Below, piece after piece: positions 8,073 through 17,920 of a stretch of 64,000 nt of DNA (positions are counted from its first letter, which is position 1; every line of letters starts with the position of its first letter). The stretch comes from a virus. The position numbers and the translations under genes are program-made. The stretch is taken from positions 1 to 64,000 of IMG/VR virus record IMGVR_UViG_3300046782_000218; one strand, 5' to 3'. The notes under the pieces were generated by a model, which worked only from the letters and a program-made list of their open reading frames with translations, did not search any database and was not told the DNA's origin.

Positions 8073-9431
8073 TCATTGGTTAGTGACACCCAGCATTCGA
8101 GACAGCCGGTCGAACACGTGGTCGGTGTTGCCAACGGTCATCCGACATACTTCGTGAAGCTCGACCCAGTTCGGGTTGAACTTGGTGTCGTCTAGGTCTC
8201 CAGTCTTGACGCGGTGACGAGCTTCTCGGGCGACTTCGGCGGCCAGCCTGCTGCCCGCGTCGCAGTTGTCCACAGCTGCCTTGACCACGTGCCAGGCGTC
8301 CATGGGGTCGAGACCTTTCTCAACTAGCCAGGTCCTGGCCGTTGCACTCATGACCTCTGGCTCGTGGTCATACGCGTTGGCCGACATGCGGTCGGCGCGC
8401 ACTTCAAGAGTGCCGATCAGGCCGGTGGCCTTGTTGACCATGGTGTCGAGCAGGATCAACGCGGTAGGCAGCGCGATGCGCTCTACGCTGCTATGACTGA
8501 TGTCGCGTTCGTGATGCAACGCGATGTCTTCCAGCGTGGGGCCGACCTGAGCACGCACCAACCGGGCCAAGCCGGACAGATTCTCGCTAACGATCGGGTT
8601 GCGCTTGTGCGGCATGGCCGATGATCCTTGACGACGATCGGCCCCACCTTCGACCAGTTCGCCGACCTCAGTTCGCATTGACAGACGGACCTCCATGGCC
8701 AGCGACTCGATGACCGCTGCAGCCTGCGCGCAGGCGTACACCAAGTGCGCGATGGAATCGCGGAACACTACCTGCGTGGCCGTTATCGGAGCACTGACCG
8801 AAGGTCCGAGCAACAAATGCGCGAACTTGGCCTCGTCATCGTGGCTGATCCGCTTGTAGTCGCCAACCGGGCCGGACAGTTTGGGGGTAACGGCTTCGGC
8901 ACCGGCTCGTCGAAGTAGGCTGTGAGCCCGCACCATGGCAAACGTGACGTCGGCGACCTTGTACCCCCAGGTGGTAACCTCGGCAGCTTGTCCGTGCGTC
9001 CGGCCGATGCGAAGCGTGTTGCGGTGTTCGAGGGCGTGACCCGCAAGTGCCCGTACCAGTTTGTCCATCCGGCGGTCGATGACGGTCCACGAGTTGGCTA
9101 TGGCCAACGACATAGCCGAATCGACCAGGTCCGAGCTGGTCATGTTCCGGTGAACCCACCCATGAGCCACGAGGTGCATGTTACGTCGCCACGCGGCCAG
9201 GAACGCCATCACGTCGTGACCCGTCGTGGCCTCTTCCTCGGCTACGGCGTCCGGGGTGGGCACCTGAGCCCGTGCCATGGCTTCCGTGGCTTCGGAGGAG
9301 GCTCCCTGGGCCTTCGCGGCGGCAATCTCCACCCTAGCCCAGTCGCGATACTTGGCCTGTTCCGACCAGATGGCCGCCATCTCGCGGCCAAGATACCGCT
9401 TGGGCACCGGAATTTGGTCGAGCGTGTTCAT
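8073..9431 (-). CDS. purB: Adenylosuccinate lyase (fumarase/ASL superfamily)
   Basis: RY..EM..IWS, T.HDVMAF, VH..MTSSD, GRTHGQAAE.TTWG, GSSAMPHKRNP signature, LHHERDISHSSVER. Confidence 0.95.
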   Translation of the reverse strand: MNTLDQIPVPKRYLGREMAAIWSEQAKYRDWARVEIAAAKAQGASSEATEAMARAQVPTPDAVAEEEATTGHDVMAFLAAWRRNMHLVAHGWVHRNMTSSDLVDSAMSLAIANSWTVIDRRMDKLVRALAGHALEHRNTLRIGRTHGQAAEVTTWGYKVADVTFAMVRAHSLLRRAGAEAVTPKLSGPVGDYKRISHDDEAKFAHLLLGPSVSAPITATQVVFRDSIAHLVYACAQAAAVIESLAMEVRLSMRTEVGELVEGGADRRQGSSAMPHKRNPIVSENLSGLARLVRAQVGPTLEDIALHHERDISHSSVERIALPTALILLDTMVNKATGLIGTLEVRADRMSANAYDHEPEVMSATARTWLVEKGLDPMDAWHVVKAAVDNCDAGSRLAAEVAREARHRVKTGDLDDTKFNPNWVELHEVCRMTVGNTDHVFDRLSRMLGVTNQ

Positions 9432-9885
9432 TGCTGTCCTGTCTTGTCGTCAGCTTCGGTATTGCCGGTTTGCAGGTACTGCACCGTGTCCTCTCGGACC
9501 TGTTGGGACGGCTCGCTGTTGTCAAGCTGAGCACACGCCCACTGTGACGCCGCAAACTCAAGCGCGGTAGCTTCCTTGACCACGTCAGCCCTCCTGTGTC
9601 AGATATTGCCGGATGTCTGCCAGGTCGGCAGCGGCCTGCTCAAGCTCCGCTGCCGTCTGGTCGGCCTGCTGGCTGAACTCGTCCTCGGTCACGCGTTGCC
9701 CAGGTCGTACCACAGGGTGTGGGCGGCTTCCCTGGCGTCGTCGATGGCCTTACGGAGGTTGTCCCGTTGCGTGGTCATCTCCTCCAGGTCGCTGCGGAGC
9801 TGGTCCCGCTCGTTCTCCAGGTCGGAGACGTCCCCCCGCAGGTCCCCGATGATGGTGTTGGGGTCCTCTTCCGAGTAGCTGGCCA

Positions 9886-10224
9886 TCAGAAACTCACTCC
9901 CATCAGGAAGAACTTGCCGCTGACGCTCTGGTAGATCTTGACCGGGACGCCGTCCACGAACACCTGGTCCGCCGAGGAGGAGCCCACACGGTCCGTGATG
10001 TCGAAAGTGTCGCTGAGGTCCGACAGCCACAAGACCTCGGTGTAGTTCTCCCCGGAGTAGTCGCACTTGTTGACGGCCAGCTCGATGTCCCCGGCAGCTT
10101 CCTGGATCTTCTCCAGGGCCGCTATCAGGTCGCCGATCCTGGCCGCACGTTCCGACTTGTGCGGCCAGACGTTCGTCTCGGGGTCGATGGAATCCTTGTC
10201 GCGCCAGCGACGCTCTGTGGCCAC
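9886..10224 (-). CDS. Hypothetical protein, first gene of the operon ending in purB
   Basis: AGGAGG RBS; promoter TTGTAC-N18-TAGAAT at 10278-10307. Confidence 0.6.
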   Translation of the reverse strand: MATERRWRDKDSIDPETNVWPHKSERAARIGDLIAALEKIQEAAGDIELAVNKCDYSGENYTEVLWLSDLSDTFDITDRVGSSSADQVFVDGVPVKIYQSVSGKFFLMGVSF

Positions 10225-10312
10225 TGCTGCCTCCTAAGCTTAGGGGACCGTCCGGGCTGGACGGTCCCCGTACTACCATTCTACCATGGGGCGTGTAGCT
10301 GGTACAAGCTTC

Positions 10313-11236
10313 CTAGCGTCCGGTGGACCCGAACCCGTTGGAGCCCCTGACCTTGTCCCGGGTGTTGCCCCACTTGGCGTTGAAGCCGAGGGCAGCGGTC
10401 GGGAGGAGGATGATCTGCGCGACCCGCTCACCAGCCGCCACCGTGACCGGCTCGGTGCTGAGGTTCTGGCAGCCCGCGAACAGGACCCCGGTGTAGCCGT
10501 TGTCGATGATCCCGGTGGACACGAGGAGCTTCCTCGCGCGGAGCGTGGAAGACCGGCCGGTGATCATGCCCCACAGGCCGTCCGGGAGGTCCACGGCCAC
10601 CCCCGTGGGGACGTCCACGAACTCACCCGGCTGGATGGTGGTGTCCTCCAGAGTGTACAGGTCGTAGCCCGCGTCGTCGTCGTGCCCCCGGGTCGGCAGC
10701 TTCGAGTTCACGTTGTACGCCTGGAAGATCAGGTCCCACGAGGGCTTGCTCTCGATGGAGGGAACCCGGCGGACGGACTTCTGCAGCTCGCCCATCAGTT
10801 CCGCTCGGCGCTGCAGCCAGTCGGCGACGTCGTACCGAGCGTTGGACGTCTCGGGGCTGACTACCAGTACGTTGGCATCACCGGCCCACCCGCTGATGGC
10901 CCAACTGTTGTTGGTCTCGTCGGTGGCGATCACCACGGGGGTGCAGTTGTTGCGGGCACGCTCGACCTCGGCCGGAACCCCGTAGGTCACCACGCCAGAG
11001 GGCAGGTACGCAAACAGCGCGTGGGCAGCGTCGAGCGCGAACTCGTTGATCTCGCTGATGAACCCGGCAGGGTCACCCTGACCCGGGATGAAGGCGCCGC
11101 CAGGCAGGTAGGTCGACCAGCCGCTCTGGCTCATGGCCTGCTGCAGCTCGCACAGGAACTGAACGTGCTTGTGGTTAGGCTCCGTACCGTAGTCGAGCGG
11201 CTGGGCCCAGTACAGGAGCTTGCTCGGGCTATTCAT
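10313..11236 (-). CDS. N-deoxyribosyltransferase/NMP-glycosidase-like domain fused to a trimeric dUTPase-family domain (DutZ-like)
   Basis: C-terminal dUTPase motifs DAGYDL, GRSS, GIIDNGYTG, ERVAQ, RGSNGFGSTG; N-terminal LYWAQP..TYLP..INEFALDAA..TYGVPAEVERA...PVV resembles the NDT/Rcl fold. Confidence 0.8.
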   Translation of the reverse strand: MNSPSKLLYWAQPLDYGTEPNHKHVQFLCELQQAMSQSGWSTYLPGGAFIPGQGDPAGFISEINEFALDAAHALFAYLPSGVVTYGVPAEVERARNNCTPVVIATDETNNSWAISGWAGDANVLVVSPETSNARYDVADWLQRRAELMGELQKSVRRVPSIESKPSWDLIFQAYNVNSKLPTRGHDDDAGYDLYTLEDTTIQPGEFVDVPTGVAVDLPDGLWGMITGRSSTLRARKLLVSTGIIDNGYTGVLFAGCQNLSTEPVTVAAGERVAQIILLPTAALGFNAKWGNTRDKVRGSNGFGSTGR

Positions 11237-11509
11237 CGGGTTTGACTCCTACCTAGTTGGATGGGCTGCCGGGCGGGGCGATTACCCGCCCGGCAGGGTG
11301 TCACGGAGTGTGCAGCTCGGTGTAGACAGTGAACTCAGAGCCCTCGTCGCCGCTGTCCTTCCAATCGGACTCGTCGACGTCCAGGGCCTTGCCTCGGGTG
11401 ATGAACAGCTCCCCGGGGTACCGCTCGATGGCTTTGCCCACCGCCAGCGCCTCGGCCGATGTCATACCCTGCTCGACCAAGAACGCCAGGAACTTCATCT
11501 CGCCCCTGG

Positions 11510-12037
11510 TCACGGCCACTGCCCGTACTGCCGGATGAATTGGGCCATGGCCGCGTAAATCATCAGGTCACGAAGCGTGTCAACACTGGGCGCGACTCCC
11601 CGGATCATGGCGTCGGCCACGCGCTGCATCTTTCCGTATGCATAGACGAAGCAGCCGAGTTCGAGCGCTTCGGCCGGTTCGACCTCGCGCCCCTGGCCTC
11701 GGGCGTACAACCTGCCCATGGCCGCCAGCGAATTGGAGCCGTACTCCCTGGCCTTGGCCGCGATGGTGGGAGCCTCGGTGGCTACCAGCTTGGTCCACCA
11801 CTCGTCGAACTCCACGGGGCTGATGCCCAGTTCCCGCCGTAGTTCCGCCTCGGTCAGGGCTTCCGGCACTCCCACCCTGAGAGGGTTAACCATCGTTCTG
11901 TCCAGCATCTCTTGGAGCTTGGCCCGGTTGTCCTCCGCCGGACGGGGGCCGGGACCTCCGCAGGACGGGCAGTTGGGGACTCCGAACACCGGCTCGGTCG
12001 GGTGTCTCGGGTCCGTGCATTTGATGCGTTCGGTCAT
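11510..12037 (-). CDS. DUF1599/Nmad1 all-alpha NTP pyrophosphatase-like protein (putative MazZ role)
   Basis: KAREYG ... GKMQR ... DTLRDLMIYA pattern; directly downstream of purZ. Confidence 0.7.
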   Translation of the reverse strand: MTERIKCTDPRHPTEPVFGVPNCPSCGGPGPRPAEDNRAKLQEMLDRTMVNPLRVGVPEALTEAELRRELGISPVEFDEWWTKLVATEAPTIAAKAREYGSNSLAAMGRLYARGQGREVEPAEALELGCFVYAYGKMQRVADAMIRGVAPSVDTLRDLMIYAAMAQFIRQYGQWP

Positions 12038-12049
12038 GTTGCCATGCTC

Positions 12050-13153
12050 CTATCGGAGGAAGATGCCAGTGGCCGGACCGGTGCCCACGAAGTTGACGTG
12101 GGTGCCGACGTTGGCCTGAGTGATGCCGACGAGGGACGCCAGCTGACGCGCCGTGTCGTTGTCTACCCGACTGGCGTCGGAAACGCCTGCCAGCTTCGGA
12201 ATCAGCGTGTCGACCATGGTGAGAGCCAGCTTGACGCCGATGCCGCCGTTGTCCTCGACGGCGTTGCACACCATCTCGTTGTCCCACTCGCCGACGCGGC
12301 GAACCTTGTTGGTGACCGTGGTGCGCTCCTCCGGCAGGCCCAGCTCTTCCCAGGTGGTCTCACCCTTGAGGGGACCGGAATTACCGGCCACGCGGATCGG
12401 CCGGACACGAGCCGCCAGCCACACCTGGAGCTGGTCGACCGAGTCGTGCCAGGGGCTGAGTCCCGCCATGGCCAGGAAGTCGATGGCCCGGCAGTCGGAC
12501 GAGGTGCACTGCGGGTACATCCCGGCGTGCGTTCCGAGTCCGTAACCCTGCGTCCCCTCGATCAGGACGGAGTAACCCTGTCGGAGCTGGCCGTACATCC
12601 ACGGGGCGGAGTCGAAGTCGCCGCCGAACAGCTCGGCCTTGCGCCACACCCGGTCGGCACGAGCGGCGCCGATGCCCTTCGCCGTCGAGCCCAGTCGCTT
12701 GACCAGGTCGGATTGCTGCTCGTCGAAGATGTGGTGGGGCTTGAGCAGTGTCGCCGATCGGTCCACGGACAGCCGACTCGACACGTCGTATCCCGCGCGG
12801 TCGAGGGCGTCCTTCTCGGCGTCGAGCACGGCCAGGTCGACCTCGGATCCGGCCGCGATCACCAGATGCGCGTTACGGTTGCTGACCGCTGCGACCGGCA
12901 CGGACCGCAGCTTCCACAGGTGCGCCGTACCGTCGGGGATGGCGACGCCGTCCAGGTTGGTCATGACCACGTGATTGGTCTCGTCCGGCTTGCACCCCGG
13001 AGGGCACTTGCCCACTACGGTGTGACCCGCGTTCGGTCCGGCCACGCGGACGGCCACCAGGTGGGCCTCCCGCTGCGACAGCTGGTCAGCAACAGAACCC
13101 TTTCCCTCGCTTCCCAGTTGACCGCCAGCCACTACGATGAGCTTTCCGCTCAT
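12050..13153 (-). CDS. purZ: PurZ (PurZ0-type) N6-succino-2-amino-deoxyadenylate synthase, a PurA paralog
   Basis: GGQLGSEGKG (Ser where PurA has catalytic Asp, GDEGKG), GPNAGHT, GSTAKGIG, IEGTQG, YPQCTS, RVAGNSG, ERTTVTNKVRRV, LTMVD; short archaeal-type length (367 aa). Confidence 0.88.
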   Translation of the reverse strand: MSGKLIVVAGGQLGSEGKGSVADQLSQREAHLVAVRVAGPNAGHTVVGKCPPGCKPDETNHVVMTNLDGVAIPDGTAHLWKLRSVPVAAVSNRNAHLVIAAGSEVDLAVLDAEKDALDRAGYDVSSRLSVDRSATLLKPHHIFDEQQSDLVKRLGSTAKGIGAARADRVWRKAELFGGDFDSAPWMYGQLRQGYSVLIEGTQGYGLGTHAGMYPQCTSSDCRAIDFLAMAGLSPWHDSVDQLQVWLAARVRPIRVAGNSGPLKGETTWEELGLPEERTTVTNKVRRVGEWDNEMVCNAVEDNGGIGVKLALTMVDTLIPKLAGVSDASRVDNDTARQLASLVGITQANVGTHVNFVGTGPATGIFLR

Positions 13154-13187
13154 TCTGTACCGCCTCTCTGTGTTCTGGTACTACACT

Positions 13188-13217
13188 ATTGTACCATGCC
13201 CCGCACACCCGGCACAA
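13188..13217 (-). promoter_or_regulatory. Promoter of the purZ operon
   Basis: TTGTGC-N18-TACAAT with extended TG. Confidence 0.7.
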
Positions 13218-13226
13218 GCCGGGCTG

Positions 13227-13721
13227 TCATTTGGCGTTACCCTGACGCACCTGCTTAACCCAGAAATATCCAAGGCACTCGCTGTCCTTTGAGTGACCTC
13301 CGTGGCCGTAGCTCTTCCAAGCCCGGAGCGGCATCTGCGGCGGCATGAAGGCCATCGTCTTGTACAGCTTCTTGTGGTGACCAGCAAGATACCGCCGCAT
13401 TGGCACTGCGGTACGGCGACAGATGTGCTTCATGGCACCGATGAGTTCCGAAGTCTGGAACTCCGACCCGATCTGCTGCCCCATCAGTTCGCCGTAAAGC
13501 TGAAATTTCTCGTACACTACCAGATCGATCTTGCCAGCGTCGGTAACCTCGATCAACATGTCGACCATACGGTCCGGCGTGGTCTCCCATGACCGCAGAC
13601 ACTGGTCCCCAGACCAGGTGGTTACTCCCACGTGAATGTCCCCAGGGTCAATGGACGTCCAGCGGTCCGGCAGCAGGTTGGGCAGCGGGAACTCGAGCGG
13701 GTCGTTTATCACTGTATCCAC
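13227..13721 (-). CDS. RuvC-like Holliday junction resolvase
   Basis: SIDPGDIHVG, VVYEKF, ELIG, H..DS acidic residues of the RNase H fold. Confidence 0.75.
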   Translation of the reverse strand: MDTVINDPLEFPLPNLLPDRWTSIDPGDIHVGVTTWSGDQCLRSWETTPDRMVDMLIEVTDAGKIDLVVYEKFQLYGELMGQQIGSEFQTSELIGAMKHICRRTAVPMRRYLAGHHKKLYKTMAFMPPQMPLRAWKSYGHGGHSKDSECLGYFWVKQVRQGNAK

Positions 13722-15079: not shown

Positions 15080-17391
15080 TCAGTGCTTGTCCCTCCAGCG
15101 ATCCGGGGAAATCCCCCAGGTCATCGTGCGGCCTCTGACGTTGAAGTATTTCTGGAACTCACGCTCACCGATGGCTGACACTTGTTCAGCTTCCTTGCGC
15201 CCTGCCTCGTCGGCTGTGTGCCTAGTCACCAGGCTGTCGTGTATCTGCAGCAACAGAACGCCAGGCATCTCGCGTTCAACAGCCAGCATCCATTTAACCA
15301 TCCCCCTCGCCAAATTACCTTGAATCACCTGGTTTACCGCGCTGTTGGTCTTCTCGCTGGGGCTGTACCAGCGTCGCCAGCCATCCAGCATGGTCAGATA
15401 CCCACACCCGCCCTGCCAGCGGGTGACCTTCTGGGTTGCCTGGTTGGTCAGACGCCGGAACTCAGGGTATTCGGTGAAGAAACTCTCCATTGCGTCCTTG
15501 GTGGCCTGCATCGAAATCGGTACGCCGGATGCGGCCTCGATCTGTTCCATCAGTGCCTTGACGCCACCGCCGTACAGGATGCCGAACGTGCCTCGCTTGG
15601 CTGCGTTACGCAGGTCGTAGAATTGCGGGTGGTCGGGGTCGACGCCGAACAACGCTTTGGCGTTCATCGCGTGCAGATCGGCCCCGGAGTCGAGGGCGTC
15701 CCAGAGCTTGGTACTGCCCGCGATTACGGTAACCACACGCATTTCGCCGGTAGCGAGGTCGTGCTCGTACAGGTCGTACCCGGGCTCATCTCCGATGATG
15801 CTCCGGATAGGCTCCGTGTCTTCCGGGATGAGTCGTCCGTGCGGGATGGCCTGGGCCTGCCAGCGGCCCACCGCGAGCCTCCCAGATACCGTCCCGCCCT
15901 TTCCGTCGCTGGCCCGGTCGAAATCGCCCTTGGTCTGCTTGTATCGAGTCCGGATACGACCATCCTTGCCGGTGCGCTTGGCCCAACCGGTATACCACTT
16001 GGAGTCGGAATTCCGGTTCTTGGTCCAGGCCATGAACTCCTGAGCCCACGGTCGCCCTTCGCTGACCAGTTTTCGCAGCTCGGTCAGGTCCAATTGAGGC
16101 TGTCGGGTCTTCTCGGTCCGGCTGGTCGGCTCCAGCCCCATGCCGTTCTTCCCGCCACATTCCGGGCACGACTTCTCGCACACCGTGGGGAACGTCAGAT
16201 CTTCCGCCCACGGGTCACCGCCACCGGGTGCAGGAACCTGCACATCCGCAGACCGGCTGCACGTCGGGCCGTAGTAGAACCGTTTGGCCTGCGCGATCTT
16301 GGAGGGATCGAACGGCATCACAGCTGCGATCTTGCGGTTGCGGACGCGAAGCTTCGCACCCTCGGCCAGCGACCGATCTACCGCGTAGTAGACGCCTCGA
16401 CGCTCCATGCGGTAGAGCGTGGTCCGAAGCTCCATCTCGTCCTTGACCAGATCCCAGAACTTGGGCAGTACCTCGCCGTTGTCAGCGCACGCCAGCTGAT
16501 ATTCCTTGAGACGCGCGGTCAGCTGGGTGTCTTTGGCCGCGTACTTTGACATCGCTCCGGCCCAGACGAGCAGATCGTATCGCTTGGTCATCTGAACGCC
16601 GACCTTGGAAAGCTCGTCTTTCAGTTCCTCGGCCTCGGTGCCCTCGTCTTCACCCCACAGCCGCTTAGCTGTTTTCTTGAGGGCAGCCGGTTCGAGCGGG
16701 TCGATGAGCTGTTTCTGAATGACCAGGGTGCACCAGATGGCGCGACGCCGAGTAGCCGGGTTGACCGGCGGCTCCAACGTAGGTTCCATCATGTTGAGCC
16801 GCTGGGGTTTGTTCAATTCCCAGGTACCCGGCTCACTGTCAGGGTCCCACGCCCCCCAGCCGTCCCAGATTTCGGGGTTGCTCCCTGCACCCGCGCGCAG
16901 ACCGGCTGCGAACATCGGCATATCGTGGATCGAGTTGTGCATGGTCAGGTTGTCGCGTCGGTCGAGCCATGCGATCAACTTCGCGTACTCGGTAGCGGGC
17001 AGGTTGGGTGCCGCGTCCGCCATGGTGATATCGCGGCCGAGGACCTTCGACATAGCGGCCAGGATGCGGTCCTGCTCGGCCTGGTCGATGATGGCGAATT
17101 CGGCATGACCTGTCTCCGGGTCAACGGTCGGCTTGCCCGGCTTGCCGATGAGCGGCCCCTGATCGAACGGCCACGCGAAGTCGAGCAGTTCGTTGGTCTC
17201 GGGGTCGCGGAAGCTGAGCGACACCACCGAAATTCGGGCCTCAGGCTGCGGCGGATTGTTTCCCGATTTGAACGGCTCACCGTCTCGAAAAAGGCCGGAC
17301 GCTAAGAGCCCTCCGTGTCGACGCTAACGTCCCACCCCGAGGGGAGTTCCGGCAGCTCGACGTCACCTACGCGGGTGAATTGGAGAGTCAT
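15080..17391 (-). CDS. Family A DNA polymerase (DpoZ candidate) with 3'-5' exonuclease; as given, interrupted by an 8-nt insertion at 17298-17305
   Basis: ExoI VDTEGS|GL, ExoII MHNSIHD, ExoIII YAAKD, motif A HDLATGEMR, motif B RNAAKRGTFGILYG, motif C QIHDS; the upstream fragment 17391-17306 joins in frame to the 15080-17227 ORF if GACGCTAA is removed. Confidence 0.88.
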
Positions 17392-17920
17392 TGGCATCAC
17401 CTACTTTCGTGTGAGGGCACGCGCCGTAGGCGTGCTTAGCGAAGTTGCAGTTGTGGCACAGAGTTTGGAACCCCTCAGGGTACCCGTTCTTGTTTAGCCA
17501 CCGGTAGGTTACCAGAGATCCGCCGCTAGAAGCTTTACCCCTGATCTCCTCCCGGTGTACGTTACCATCATTGTTTACATGGTCTATGCAGAGAAATTCC
17601 TCATGGCTTTCTCCGCAACAAGCGCACAATAGCCCGTATGCGTCCAACGCTGCCTTGCGGTACCGATAATGACGGTATTTGGCACCTCGGCGCATGTTAG
17701 CTTTTATGGACTCATGCTGCTCGGTGGTCATCTGTGACCTGCGCCACGTGGCTACGTTTTCTCGGTTGCAAACACGGCACACCCAAACCTTGCCGTTGTG
17801 GTACGCGTTCTCCTCGGTGCGAGGGTGTCCTTTCTGGCACTCTTGGTCCGGCGTTACCCCGCAGTAACACGATTTAGCCCGCTGGCCCCGCCAGACGTGC
17901 TCGTGTTGTTCTGTGGTCAT
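17363..17920 (-). CDS. HNH endonuclease with Zn-finger modules
   Basis: CQKGH..EN..CRVC; CACCG..LCIDHV..GFQTLCHNCN; promoter TTGACA-N17-TAAAAT at 17928-17956 implies a near-leaderless start at 17920. Confidence 0.8.
   Translation of the reverse strand: MTTEQHEHVWRGQRAKSCYCGVTPDQECQKGHPRTEENAYHNGKVWVCRVCNRENVATWRRSQMTTEQHESIKANMRRGAKYRHYRYRKAALDAYGLLCACCGESHEEFLCIDHVNNDGNVHREEIRGKASSGGSLVTYRWLNKNGYPEGFQTLCHNCNFAKHAYGACPHTKVGDANDSPIHPRR

Follow-up and report, generated by a model that had tools for sequence, protein, structure and literature searches.

The classical Z-cluster, that of phages such as phiVC8 and S-2L that carry 2-aminoadenine (Z) instead of adenine, consists of PurZ, MazZ or DUF550, DatZ, and DpoZ or PrimPol. 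For the branch of Z-genome phages that uses PurZ0, a 2026 paper in Nucleic Acids Research (PMC12884076) characterised biochemically a 307-aa protein of Arthrobacter phage Wayne, in which a nucleoside deoxyribosyltransferase (NDT) is fused to a dUTPase-like protein (Dut), together with the separate proteins of Gordonia phage Ghobes. The Dut parts (DutZ) turn dATP, dGTP and dUTP into monophosphates, and the NDT-like parts (DmtZ) hydrolyse dAMP and move deoxyribose-5-phosphate onto Z. All of the 98 PurZ0 genomes in that work carry dutZ, 85 carry dmtZ, and 77 have both fused (PMC12884076). Here, we analysed a gene cluster in a stretch of 64,000 nucleotides (hereafter the window), bases 1-64000 of the 89,118-bp IMG/VR virus record IMGVR_UViG_3300046782_000218, which has a CheckV completeness of 99%. 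The cluster occupies the 5.1-kb stretch from 8,073 to 13,217, which ends 64 nt past the start of purZ0, the gene of a PurA paralog (Table 1). We regard it, with a probability of about 0.8, as the module for nucleotide metabolism in a Z-genome phage of the PurZ0 type, an actinophage from soil that is related to the Hiyaaviruses.

The nearest cultured relatives of this phage are the Streptomyces Hiyaaviruses (Hiyaa, Galactica, Keanu and Spocter), which have the identical gene order: PolA, then further on PurZ, a hypothetical protein with a conserved C-terminal domain and a dUTPase of about 290 aa, and then a PurB-like lyase. The window proteins are 59% (PurZ), 58% (PolA), 50% (PurB) and 48% (the domain of the 175-aa protein encoded after purZ0) identical to those of Galactica, and the Hiyaavirus PurZ0 has a Cys-containing insert in common with that of the window. 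The two differ in the span from purZ to purB (5.1 kb in the window versus about 7 kb), in the length of the protein encoded after purZ (175 versus 315-419 aa), and in the polymerase gene, which is interrupted in the window, unlike in the Hiyaaviruses. At the DNA level, matches among 50,697 phage records covered only 7% of the 5.1-kb stretch, the best being to Galactica.

Wayne has the same four-gene layout (PurZ0 - DUF5664 - 73-aa open reading frame (ORF) - DmtZ-DutZ), including a fused NDT-dUTPase in which the DmtZ triad is kept, and phage_DpoZ_2 is the NCBIfam type of both polymerases. The slot after purZ0 is different: it encodes DUF5664 in Wayne (Pfam, 3.5e-32) and a protein of an unrelated family without Pfam match in the window (hhalign probability of 0.3%). 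We found no PurB match in the 16-kb region of Wayne that we examined, and no Arthrobacter phage is among the 35 records that match the window PurB. Ghobes resembles the window in encoding PurZ0 with a member of the 175-aa family (gp51) immediately behind it, DmtZ (gp53), DutZ (gp55) and a lyase (gp36). Unlike in the window, its DmtZ and DutZ are separate genes, and its PurB, which has 377 aa and is very divergent, is encoded 7 kb away on the opposite strand. The logic of the phiVC8 and S-2L clusters is that of the window, i.e., a PurA-derived synthetase, removal of dATP with supply of dGMP, and, immediately downstream of purZ, a gene for a small helical protein. Their synthetases nevertheless form a distinct PurZ clade with a GSTGKG P-loop and with Asn or Gln for the Asp of the guanine pocket, and their DatZ and MazZ are absent from the window phage. 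The five PurZ-proper loci fetched are without an annotated PurB gene.

The cluster belongs to the described PurZ0/DutZ/DmtZ kind and is typical of its lineage. A previous sequence-only reading of the same stretch had proposed a module for replacing adenine by Z, called it unusually self-sufficient, and thought its set of helpers non-standard. The proposal itself is supported with respect to PurZ, to a dUTPase-like hydrolase in the place of DatZ and MazZ, and to PurB, by family, phylogeny and context. The two qualifiers have to be dropped: DutZ and DmtZ are the published set (PMC12884076), the gene order is that of Galactica and Hiyaa, PurB-like genes occur in other PurZ0 loci and in Gordonia phages (see below), and the phage has no detectable guanylate kinase. 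The genes named in that reading were recovered at its coordinates, namely a PurA paralog with GSEGKG, TTVT..RR and TMVD, a 175-aa ORF, an NDT-dUTPase fusion, purB, and a PolA some 2 kb upstream; the label DUF1599 given to the product of the 175-aa ORF was not confirmed.

The 367-aa product of purZ0 matches Pfam Adenylsucc_synt (5e-30) and phrog_1211 (6e-75). With 319 bits it passes the curated cut-off (300) of the NCBIfam PurZ model NF038379, and the next best model, the archaeal-type PurA model PRK04293, scores 146 bits lower (172.8 bits). The same PurZ model gave 346-397 bits for the phage controls phiVC8, S-2L and Ghobes, 367-374 bits for Hiyaa and Wayne, and 232-255 bits for five cellular short PurA-like controls, for which PRK04293 ranked first. 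Among structures in PDB, the best match is 7vf6 (1.3e-78), a 367-aa chain deposited as 'PurA-like adenylosuccinate synthetase', followed by the PurA of Pyrococcus (1.3e-31), the PurZ of phiVC8 (1e-18) and the PurZ of S-2L (6e-15). We built a quick maximum-likelihood tree of 56 rows (three fragmentary rows were dropped beforehand), a phylogeny of PurA, PurZ and PurZ0 having been suggested as a check with the original proposal. The window synthetase was placed among the 36 rows of a PurZ0 clade that also contains Wayne, Ghobes, Goodman and the Hiyaaviruses (Shimodaira-Hasegawa-like approximate likelihood ratio test, SH-aLRT, of 100), as the sister of the Hiyaavirus group (SH-aLRT 99), and the five PurZ-proper rows formed a separate clade (SH-aLRT 100). 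By family and phylogeny, the PurA paralog is a PurZ0-type synthetase.

The motifs of the protein comprise GSEGKG at residues 14-19, ERTTVTNKVRRVGEW, LALTMVD, and the TTVTNKVRR loop. The P-loop reads GSE[GA]KG in PurZ0 rows versus GSTGKG in PurZ proper, and in the alignment all seven PurZ0 rows displayed retain the Asp of TMVD, where four PurZ-proper rows have Asn or Gln. We take this Asp to be the guanine reader, as in the PurA of E. coli. In GSEGKG a Ser replaces the catalytic Asp13 of PurA, which is not diagnostic on its own because the cellular homologues have it too: among 72 short PurA-like proteins from prokaryote contigs (L093-L167), the position holds Ser in 70 and Gly in two. Many of these cellular genes lie on Mb-sized bacterial chromosomes, and their products score below the cut-offs of both PurZ and archaeal PurA. 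In 74 cellular PurA-like loci we found no PurB, Dut or member of the 175-aa family within 3 kb. The Cys-containing insert that the window PurZ0 has in common with its Hiyaa-like relatives follows AGHTV (approximately residues 47-78, nt 12920-13015). Its residues C50, C54 and H78 are invariant in 28 relatives and may form a small metal-binding knuckle; the insert is absent in Wayne, Ghobes, PurZ proper and the cellular homologues.

The 307-aa protein is, by alignment and domain content, a DmtZ-DutZ fusion, whose architecture and length match those of the Wayne enzyme (307 aa). The dUTPase domain spans residues 178-306 (Pfam 7.5e-25; phrog_135 4e-45) and is 42-53% identical to the Dut domains of Wayne and Ghobes; its score with TIGR00576 (dut), 100.9 bits, is just under the cut-off of 102.55. 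The N-terminal half has no Pfam match even at E 10, and it aligns with the NDT-like DmtZ of Ghobes and Wayne. The catalytic triad of DmtZ is of the NDT type, Tyr/Asn/Glu, with Asp12, Pro57, Gly99 and Trp124 as further key residues in Ghobes (PMC12884076). All seven are present in the window, where Y9, D15, P45, N64, G86, E90 and W112 correspond to Y6, D12, P57, N77, G99, E103 and W124 of Ghobes DmtZ, and they are likewise kept in Wayne, Hiyaa and Galactica. The DutZ domain is therefore a predicted dATP/dGTP/dUTP diphosphatase, and the DmtZ domain a predicted dAMP N-hydrolase and deoxyribose-5-phosphate transferase.

The last gene of the cluster encodes a 452-aa protein that matches Lyase_1 (6e-35), and its best NCBIfam model is TIGR00928 (purB) with 289.9 bits, 120 bits above the next family. 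The PurB of Hiyaa passes the cut-off of this model at 335 bits, and that of Ghobes scores 152 bits. We call the window protein PurB-like because its score is under the cut-off. Its translation contains GRTHGQAAE and GSSAMPHKRNP, and it looks catalytically intact if, as we assume, GRTHGQ is the catalytic His motif and SSAMPHKRNP the Ser-containing signature loop. The predicted reaction is the conversion of succino-amino-deoxyadenylate (dSMP) into the monophosphate of Z (dZMP) and fumarate. Annotated PurB-like lyases are 48-50% identical in the Hiyaaviruses and more divergent in the Gordonia phages Ghobes, Archimedes, Sapo and Frizzle.

We also looked for the lyase gene in 80 IMG/VR loci with a PurZ0 relative, a number that counts contigs and not independent lineages (around 30 of them, L013-L045, have one common layout, and L010 is phage Hiyaa itself). 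A PurB-like gene is present in the fetched flank of 31/80 loci, and in 12 of the 30 loci whose flanks reach 5 kb or more on each side. In seven loci it shares the strand of purZ0 and follows that gene at a distance of at most 1.5 kb, in a compact PurZ0 - domain - PurB - DmtZ-DutZ block. A tree of 50 PurB rows split 38 rows of viral context, the window lyase among them, from the 12 nearest cellular PurBs (SH-aLRT 99), which are 43-45% identical to the window lyase and one of which is named Trebonia sp.; the cellular sample being narrow, the viral-context group may have one origin or several. The viral context was verified for the named phages and the IMG/VR loci, whereas the remaining rows (P-numbered) were assigned by similarity and by the lack of PF10397 (ADSL_C). 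The nearest cellular PurBs carry ADSL_C and the viral-type relatives listed do not, the latter being defined as those without a PF10397 match or from named phages. In the PurZ literature searched, its supplements being outside the search so that an earlier mention is possible, PurB is host-encoded or unmentioned, and a phage PurB is not treated.

Searches of the 89-kb record, in which the positive controls were detected, returned no YfbR-like, HD_3 or HD domain at E<=1, which extends to the whole record the earlier remark that no HD-domain DatZ is visible in the window. At the same threshold there was no MazG, DUF550 or DUF5664, and no guanylate kinase; the steps from dZMP to dZTP are therefore left to the host. 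From the observed family memberships, conserved catalytic residues, phylogeny and gene context, we infer the following enzymatic steps and, as their outcome, Z in the virion DNA. The DutZ domain would turn dATP and dGTP into dAMP and dGMP, by which dATP would be removed and the substrate of PurZ0 supplied. The DmtZ domain would split dAMP into adenine and deoxyribose-5-phosphate, and might transfer the sugar-phosphate to free Z base. PurZ0 would join dGMP and aspartate to give dSMP, probably with GTP as the donor because the guanine-pocket Asp of TMVD is kept. The phage PurB-like lyase would release fumarate from dSMP and yield dZMP, host kinases would make dZTP, and the Wayne-type DpoZ-like PolA would incorporate it.

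The 175-aa protein encoded next to purZ0 has no Pfam, PHROG or NCBIfam match. Its N-terminus has a C..H...CPSC stretch, and the N-terminal parts of the family are variable, Cys/His-rich and zinc-ribbon-like. The C-terminal domain is conserved: searching 1.84 billion representatives with a profile of it gave 936 clusters at E<=1e-3, 759 of them at E<=1e-10. In 118 family sequences K95, Y99, G108, K136 and R139 are invariant and E126, D153, D157, Y161, W174 and P175 nearly so, following the pattern K-x3-Y-G ... K-x2-R ... D-x3-D-x3-Y ... W-P at the C-terminus. With a hidden Markov model (HMM) built from 102 domain sequences, we found the domain directly downstream of purZ0 in all 80 IMG/VR loci, and in none of the 74 cellular PurA-like loci, none of the five PurZ-proper phage loci, and not in Wayne. 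A narrow pattern scan of IMG/VR gave six loci, all with purZ upstream. Searches with tblastn using either the window protein or a divergent member (P0280) matched 31 of the 50,697 phage records each, with identical genera for the two queries (Microbacterium 18, Gordonia 6, Streptomyces 5, Micrococcus 1, Curtobacterium 1), and all 31 come from genera whose phages have a PurA/PurZ homologue. These 31 are the records of cultured PurZ0 phages with hosts other than Arthrobacter; among Arthrobacter phages, Wayne was checked. In the annotated phages inspected, the family member immediately follows the synthetase gene. One metagenomic protein of 485 aa (P0224) naturally combines a PurZ0-like synthetase, whose P-loop is GSCGKG instead of GSEGKG, with a domain of this family; it is the only PurZ fusion among the ten long members scanned, the nine others being without Pfam domain.

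The family is thus tied tightly to PurZ0, and from its position we infer that it is a nucleotide-handling helper. By analogy, the 175-aa protein would most likely be a dNTP pyrophosphohydrolase comparable to MazZ, DUF550 or DUF5664. The corresponding slot encodes DUF5664 in Wayne, the only one of 37 records searched to have it, and in S-2L, ZP6 and BUCT555, three of the five PurZ-proper loci, a protein annotated as MazZ, MazG or DUF550; in phiVC8 and Barton it holds a hypothetical protein. We tentatively propose, at somewhat less than even odds, that the C-terminal domain, some 100 aa long, belongs to the core of the PurZ0 pathway as a component not described before, in the boldest version as a new family of dGTP/dATP pyrophosphohydrolases (an analogue of MazZ) or as an obligatory partner of PurZ0. 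If this is true, the domain and a phage PurB lineage acting as dedicated dSMP lyase would turn the PurZ0 route into a four-enzyme, phage-encoded pathway. A competing view, rather doubtful but to be taken seriously, is that the protein is no enzyme of nucleotide metabolism and instead may assist PurZ0 in a structural or regulatory capacity, or may bind DNA and be a mere co-traveller. Its zinc-ribbon-like N-termini would suit such a role, no homology to an NTP pyrophosphohydrolase could be detected, and a further hydrolase seems unneeded when the DutZ of the characterised relatives already gives dGMP and removes dATP. Yet the invariant Lys, Lys and Arg and the near-invariant Glu, Asp and Asp fit a metal- and phosphate-binding site, the slot is that of DUF5664 in Wayne and of MazZ, MazG or DUF550 in three of five PurZ-proper loci, and the natural fusion with PurZ0 speaks for involvement in that pathway. 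In the PurZ literature searched, within the limits given above, the family is not mentioned.

We rejected the assignment of this protein to DUF1599 made in the sequence-only reading: PF07659 does not match it at E<=10, nor anything in the six-frame translated genome at E<=1, nor any of 118 family members at E<=0.1. DUF6378 matched two of the 118 weakly. Aligned with hhalign to a profile of 34 tandem-DUF1599 proteins of Bacteroidota, the family reached a probability of 0.2-2%, with K..[DE]YG, K..R and D...D..Y lining up. In the ESM Atlas, DUF1599/DUF6378 clusters were the nearest (feature score 0.92), with template modelling scores of 0.63-0.69 between predicted structures. This likeness may serve as a fold-level lead and not as a test. 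Homology to MazZ, MazG, DUF550 and DUF5664 was likewise rejected (hhalign probability below 1% with single sequences and with a four-sequence alignment). DUF1599 itself occurs as a tandem repeat pair in one protein of about 185-220 aa, in 35 of 41 sampled genomes of one Bacteroidota class (L180-L213).

Several observations weigh against reading the cluster as a Z-genome module. The literature searched holds no enzyme assay or nucleoside analysis of this phage or of any Hiyaavirus. Two sources contradict each other on whether PurZ0 or PurZ prefers GTP: according to one, PurZ0 and PurZ prefer ATP and GTP 'respectively' (PMC12884076), and according to the other it is PurZ that moved to ATP/dATP (bioRxiv 10.1101/2025.10.22.683976). 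One of these two opposite statements is probably inverted. The Ser at the position of Asp13 is, as said, also that of nearly all cellular short PurA-like homologues. The lyase stays below the purB equivalog cut-off (289.9 versus 326.2 bits) and has no match to ADSL_C (PF10397) in Pfam. The 175-aa family reaches at most 2% hhalign probability with MazZ, DUF550, DUF5664 and DUF1599, and profile searches of PDB with it gave chance matches or none. Finally, PolA remains under the cut-offs of both DpoZ models (239.6 versus 350 bits for NF038381, 34.5 versus 500 bits for NF038380), and in the sequence as assembled an 8-nt insertion cuts the ExoI motif of the 3'-5' exonuclease domain off the main ORF.

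The polymerase gene, 1.9 kb upstream of purZ, deserves closer consideration. Its best model is NF038381 phage_DpoZ_2, the type of Wayne, Goodman and Ghobes, under whose cut-off the PolA of Hiyaa likewise falls (192 bits). Residues 11-41 of Galactica PolA align with 17397-17305 (frame -2) and residues 41-789 with 17299-15086 (frame -1). The 8 nt repeat an 8-mer located 22 nt further upstream; the repeat breaks the frame and puts a TAG right after the DTEGS of ExoI. This break matters because proofreading has been proposed to underlie the preference of phiVC8 DpoZ for Z over A (PMC8599892). Adenine might then not be fully excluded, or the genome might be a defective variant, either of which we hold unlikely. 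The contig of a second assembly (Logan, run X1) has the break with no differences at a depth of 22, and the low DpoZ scores also point this way. Both assemblies nonetheless derive from the same reads, so that a systematic error or a minority variant could explain the break. Moreover, S-2L excludes adenine by removing dATP, without a selective polymerase, according to bioRxiv 10.1101/2025.10.22.683976. DutZ and DmtZ could remove dATP in the same way, and all the other genes are intact.

PurA and PurB catalyse the two steps from IMP to AMP. That the PurA-like and PurB-like proteins are merely an auxiliary pair boosting this synthesis, and no part of a 2-aminoadenine pathway, is very improbable, even if the pair covers exactly these two steps, shares the P-loop Ser with the cellular proteins and includes a synthetase with 172.8 bits on the archaeal-type PurA model, because the PurZ model wins by 146 bits with its cut-off passed (the reverse of what the cellular homologues show), the synthetase sits within the PurZ0 clade, none of the 74 cellular loci has PurB, Dut or a member of the 175-aa family in its 3-kb neighbourhood, and the linked DmtZ-DutZ belongs to enzymes that in relatives destroy dATP and dAMP (PMC12884076), contrary to a supply of adenylate.

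Read as a PurZ0-type module, the cluster extends the PurZ0 branch of Z-genome phages by an uncultivated member from soil, and shows that the module known from cultured phages occurs widely in viromes of soil and rhizosphere. Two elements are untreated in the literature searched: the phage PurB-like lineage, and a domain without Pfam entry beside purZ0 in all loci of this kind examined, which association studies based on Pfam domains would have overlooked. If either is needed for the synthesis of dZTP, engineering ZTGC-DNA by the PurZ0 route would call for a revised minimal set of genes.

Table 1. Features of the cluster and its neighbourhood, in coordinates of the window (GC3, GC content at third codon positions).
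Feature	Coordinates	Strand	Evidence
Predicted PurZ0-type succino-amino-deoxyadenylate synthase, 367 aa	12050..13153	-	NF038379, tree, motifs
175-aa protein with conserved C-terminal domain	11510..12037	-	family HMM, position after purZ0
C-terminal domain of about 100 aa of the 175-aa protein, residues 77-175	11513-11809	-	profile family
72-aa ORF, same position as the 73-aa gp51 of Wayne	11301..11519	-	GC3 0.88
Predicted DmtZ (NDT-like) N-terminal domain of the 307-aa fusion	10727..11236	-	alignment with Ghobes DmtZ
Predicted DutZ (dUTPase-fold) C-terminal domain of the 307-aa fusion	10313..10726	-	Pfam dUTPase, phrog_135
112-aa ORF	9886..10224	-	GC3 0.88
Probable 65-aa coiled-coil-like ORF	9689..9886	-	GC3 0.92 in frame from internal ATG
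PurB-like adenylosuccinate lyase, 452 aa	8073..9431	-	Lyase_1, TIGR00928 best
Family-A DNA polymerase, closest to Wayne-type DpoZ	15080..17227	-	NF038381 best model
Upstream polymerase fragment in other frame, 31-aa ORF ending VSVDTEGS-stop	17298..17397	-	Galactica PolA alignment
164-aa ORF, phrog_5202 (function unknown), just upstream of purZ0	13227-13721	-	

The window has a GC content of about 62%, and nearly all of its credible ORFs are on the minus strand. Its replication module comprises a helicase, a primase-polymerase, a Sak4-like protein and the family-A polymerase. The 5.1-kb stretch is complete in the soil metagenome run X1, its probable source, and small identical pieces of it occur in three other soil or rhizosphere runs (X2-X4), whose pieces leave the polymerase break uncovered. 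No RNA run is listed among the sequencing runs that hold the stretch. Scans for promoters and terminators in the cluster gave counts near the shuffled expectation. The genes are tightly spaced, in the downstream order purZ0, 175 aa, 72 aa, 307 aa, 112 aa, 65 aa and 452 aa, and their co-transcription is plausible. The 72-aa and 112-aa ORFs had no family match in Pfam or PHROG, and tblastn found neither of them in the 80 IMG/VR loci. The 164-aa ORF of phrog_5202 also stands just upstream of purZ0 in 28 of the 80 related loci, and its homologue in Galactica carries the annotation Cas4 family exonuclease.

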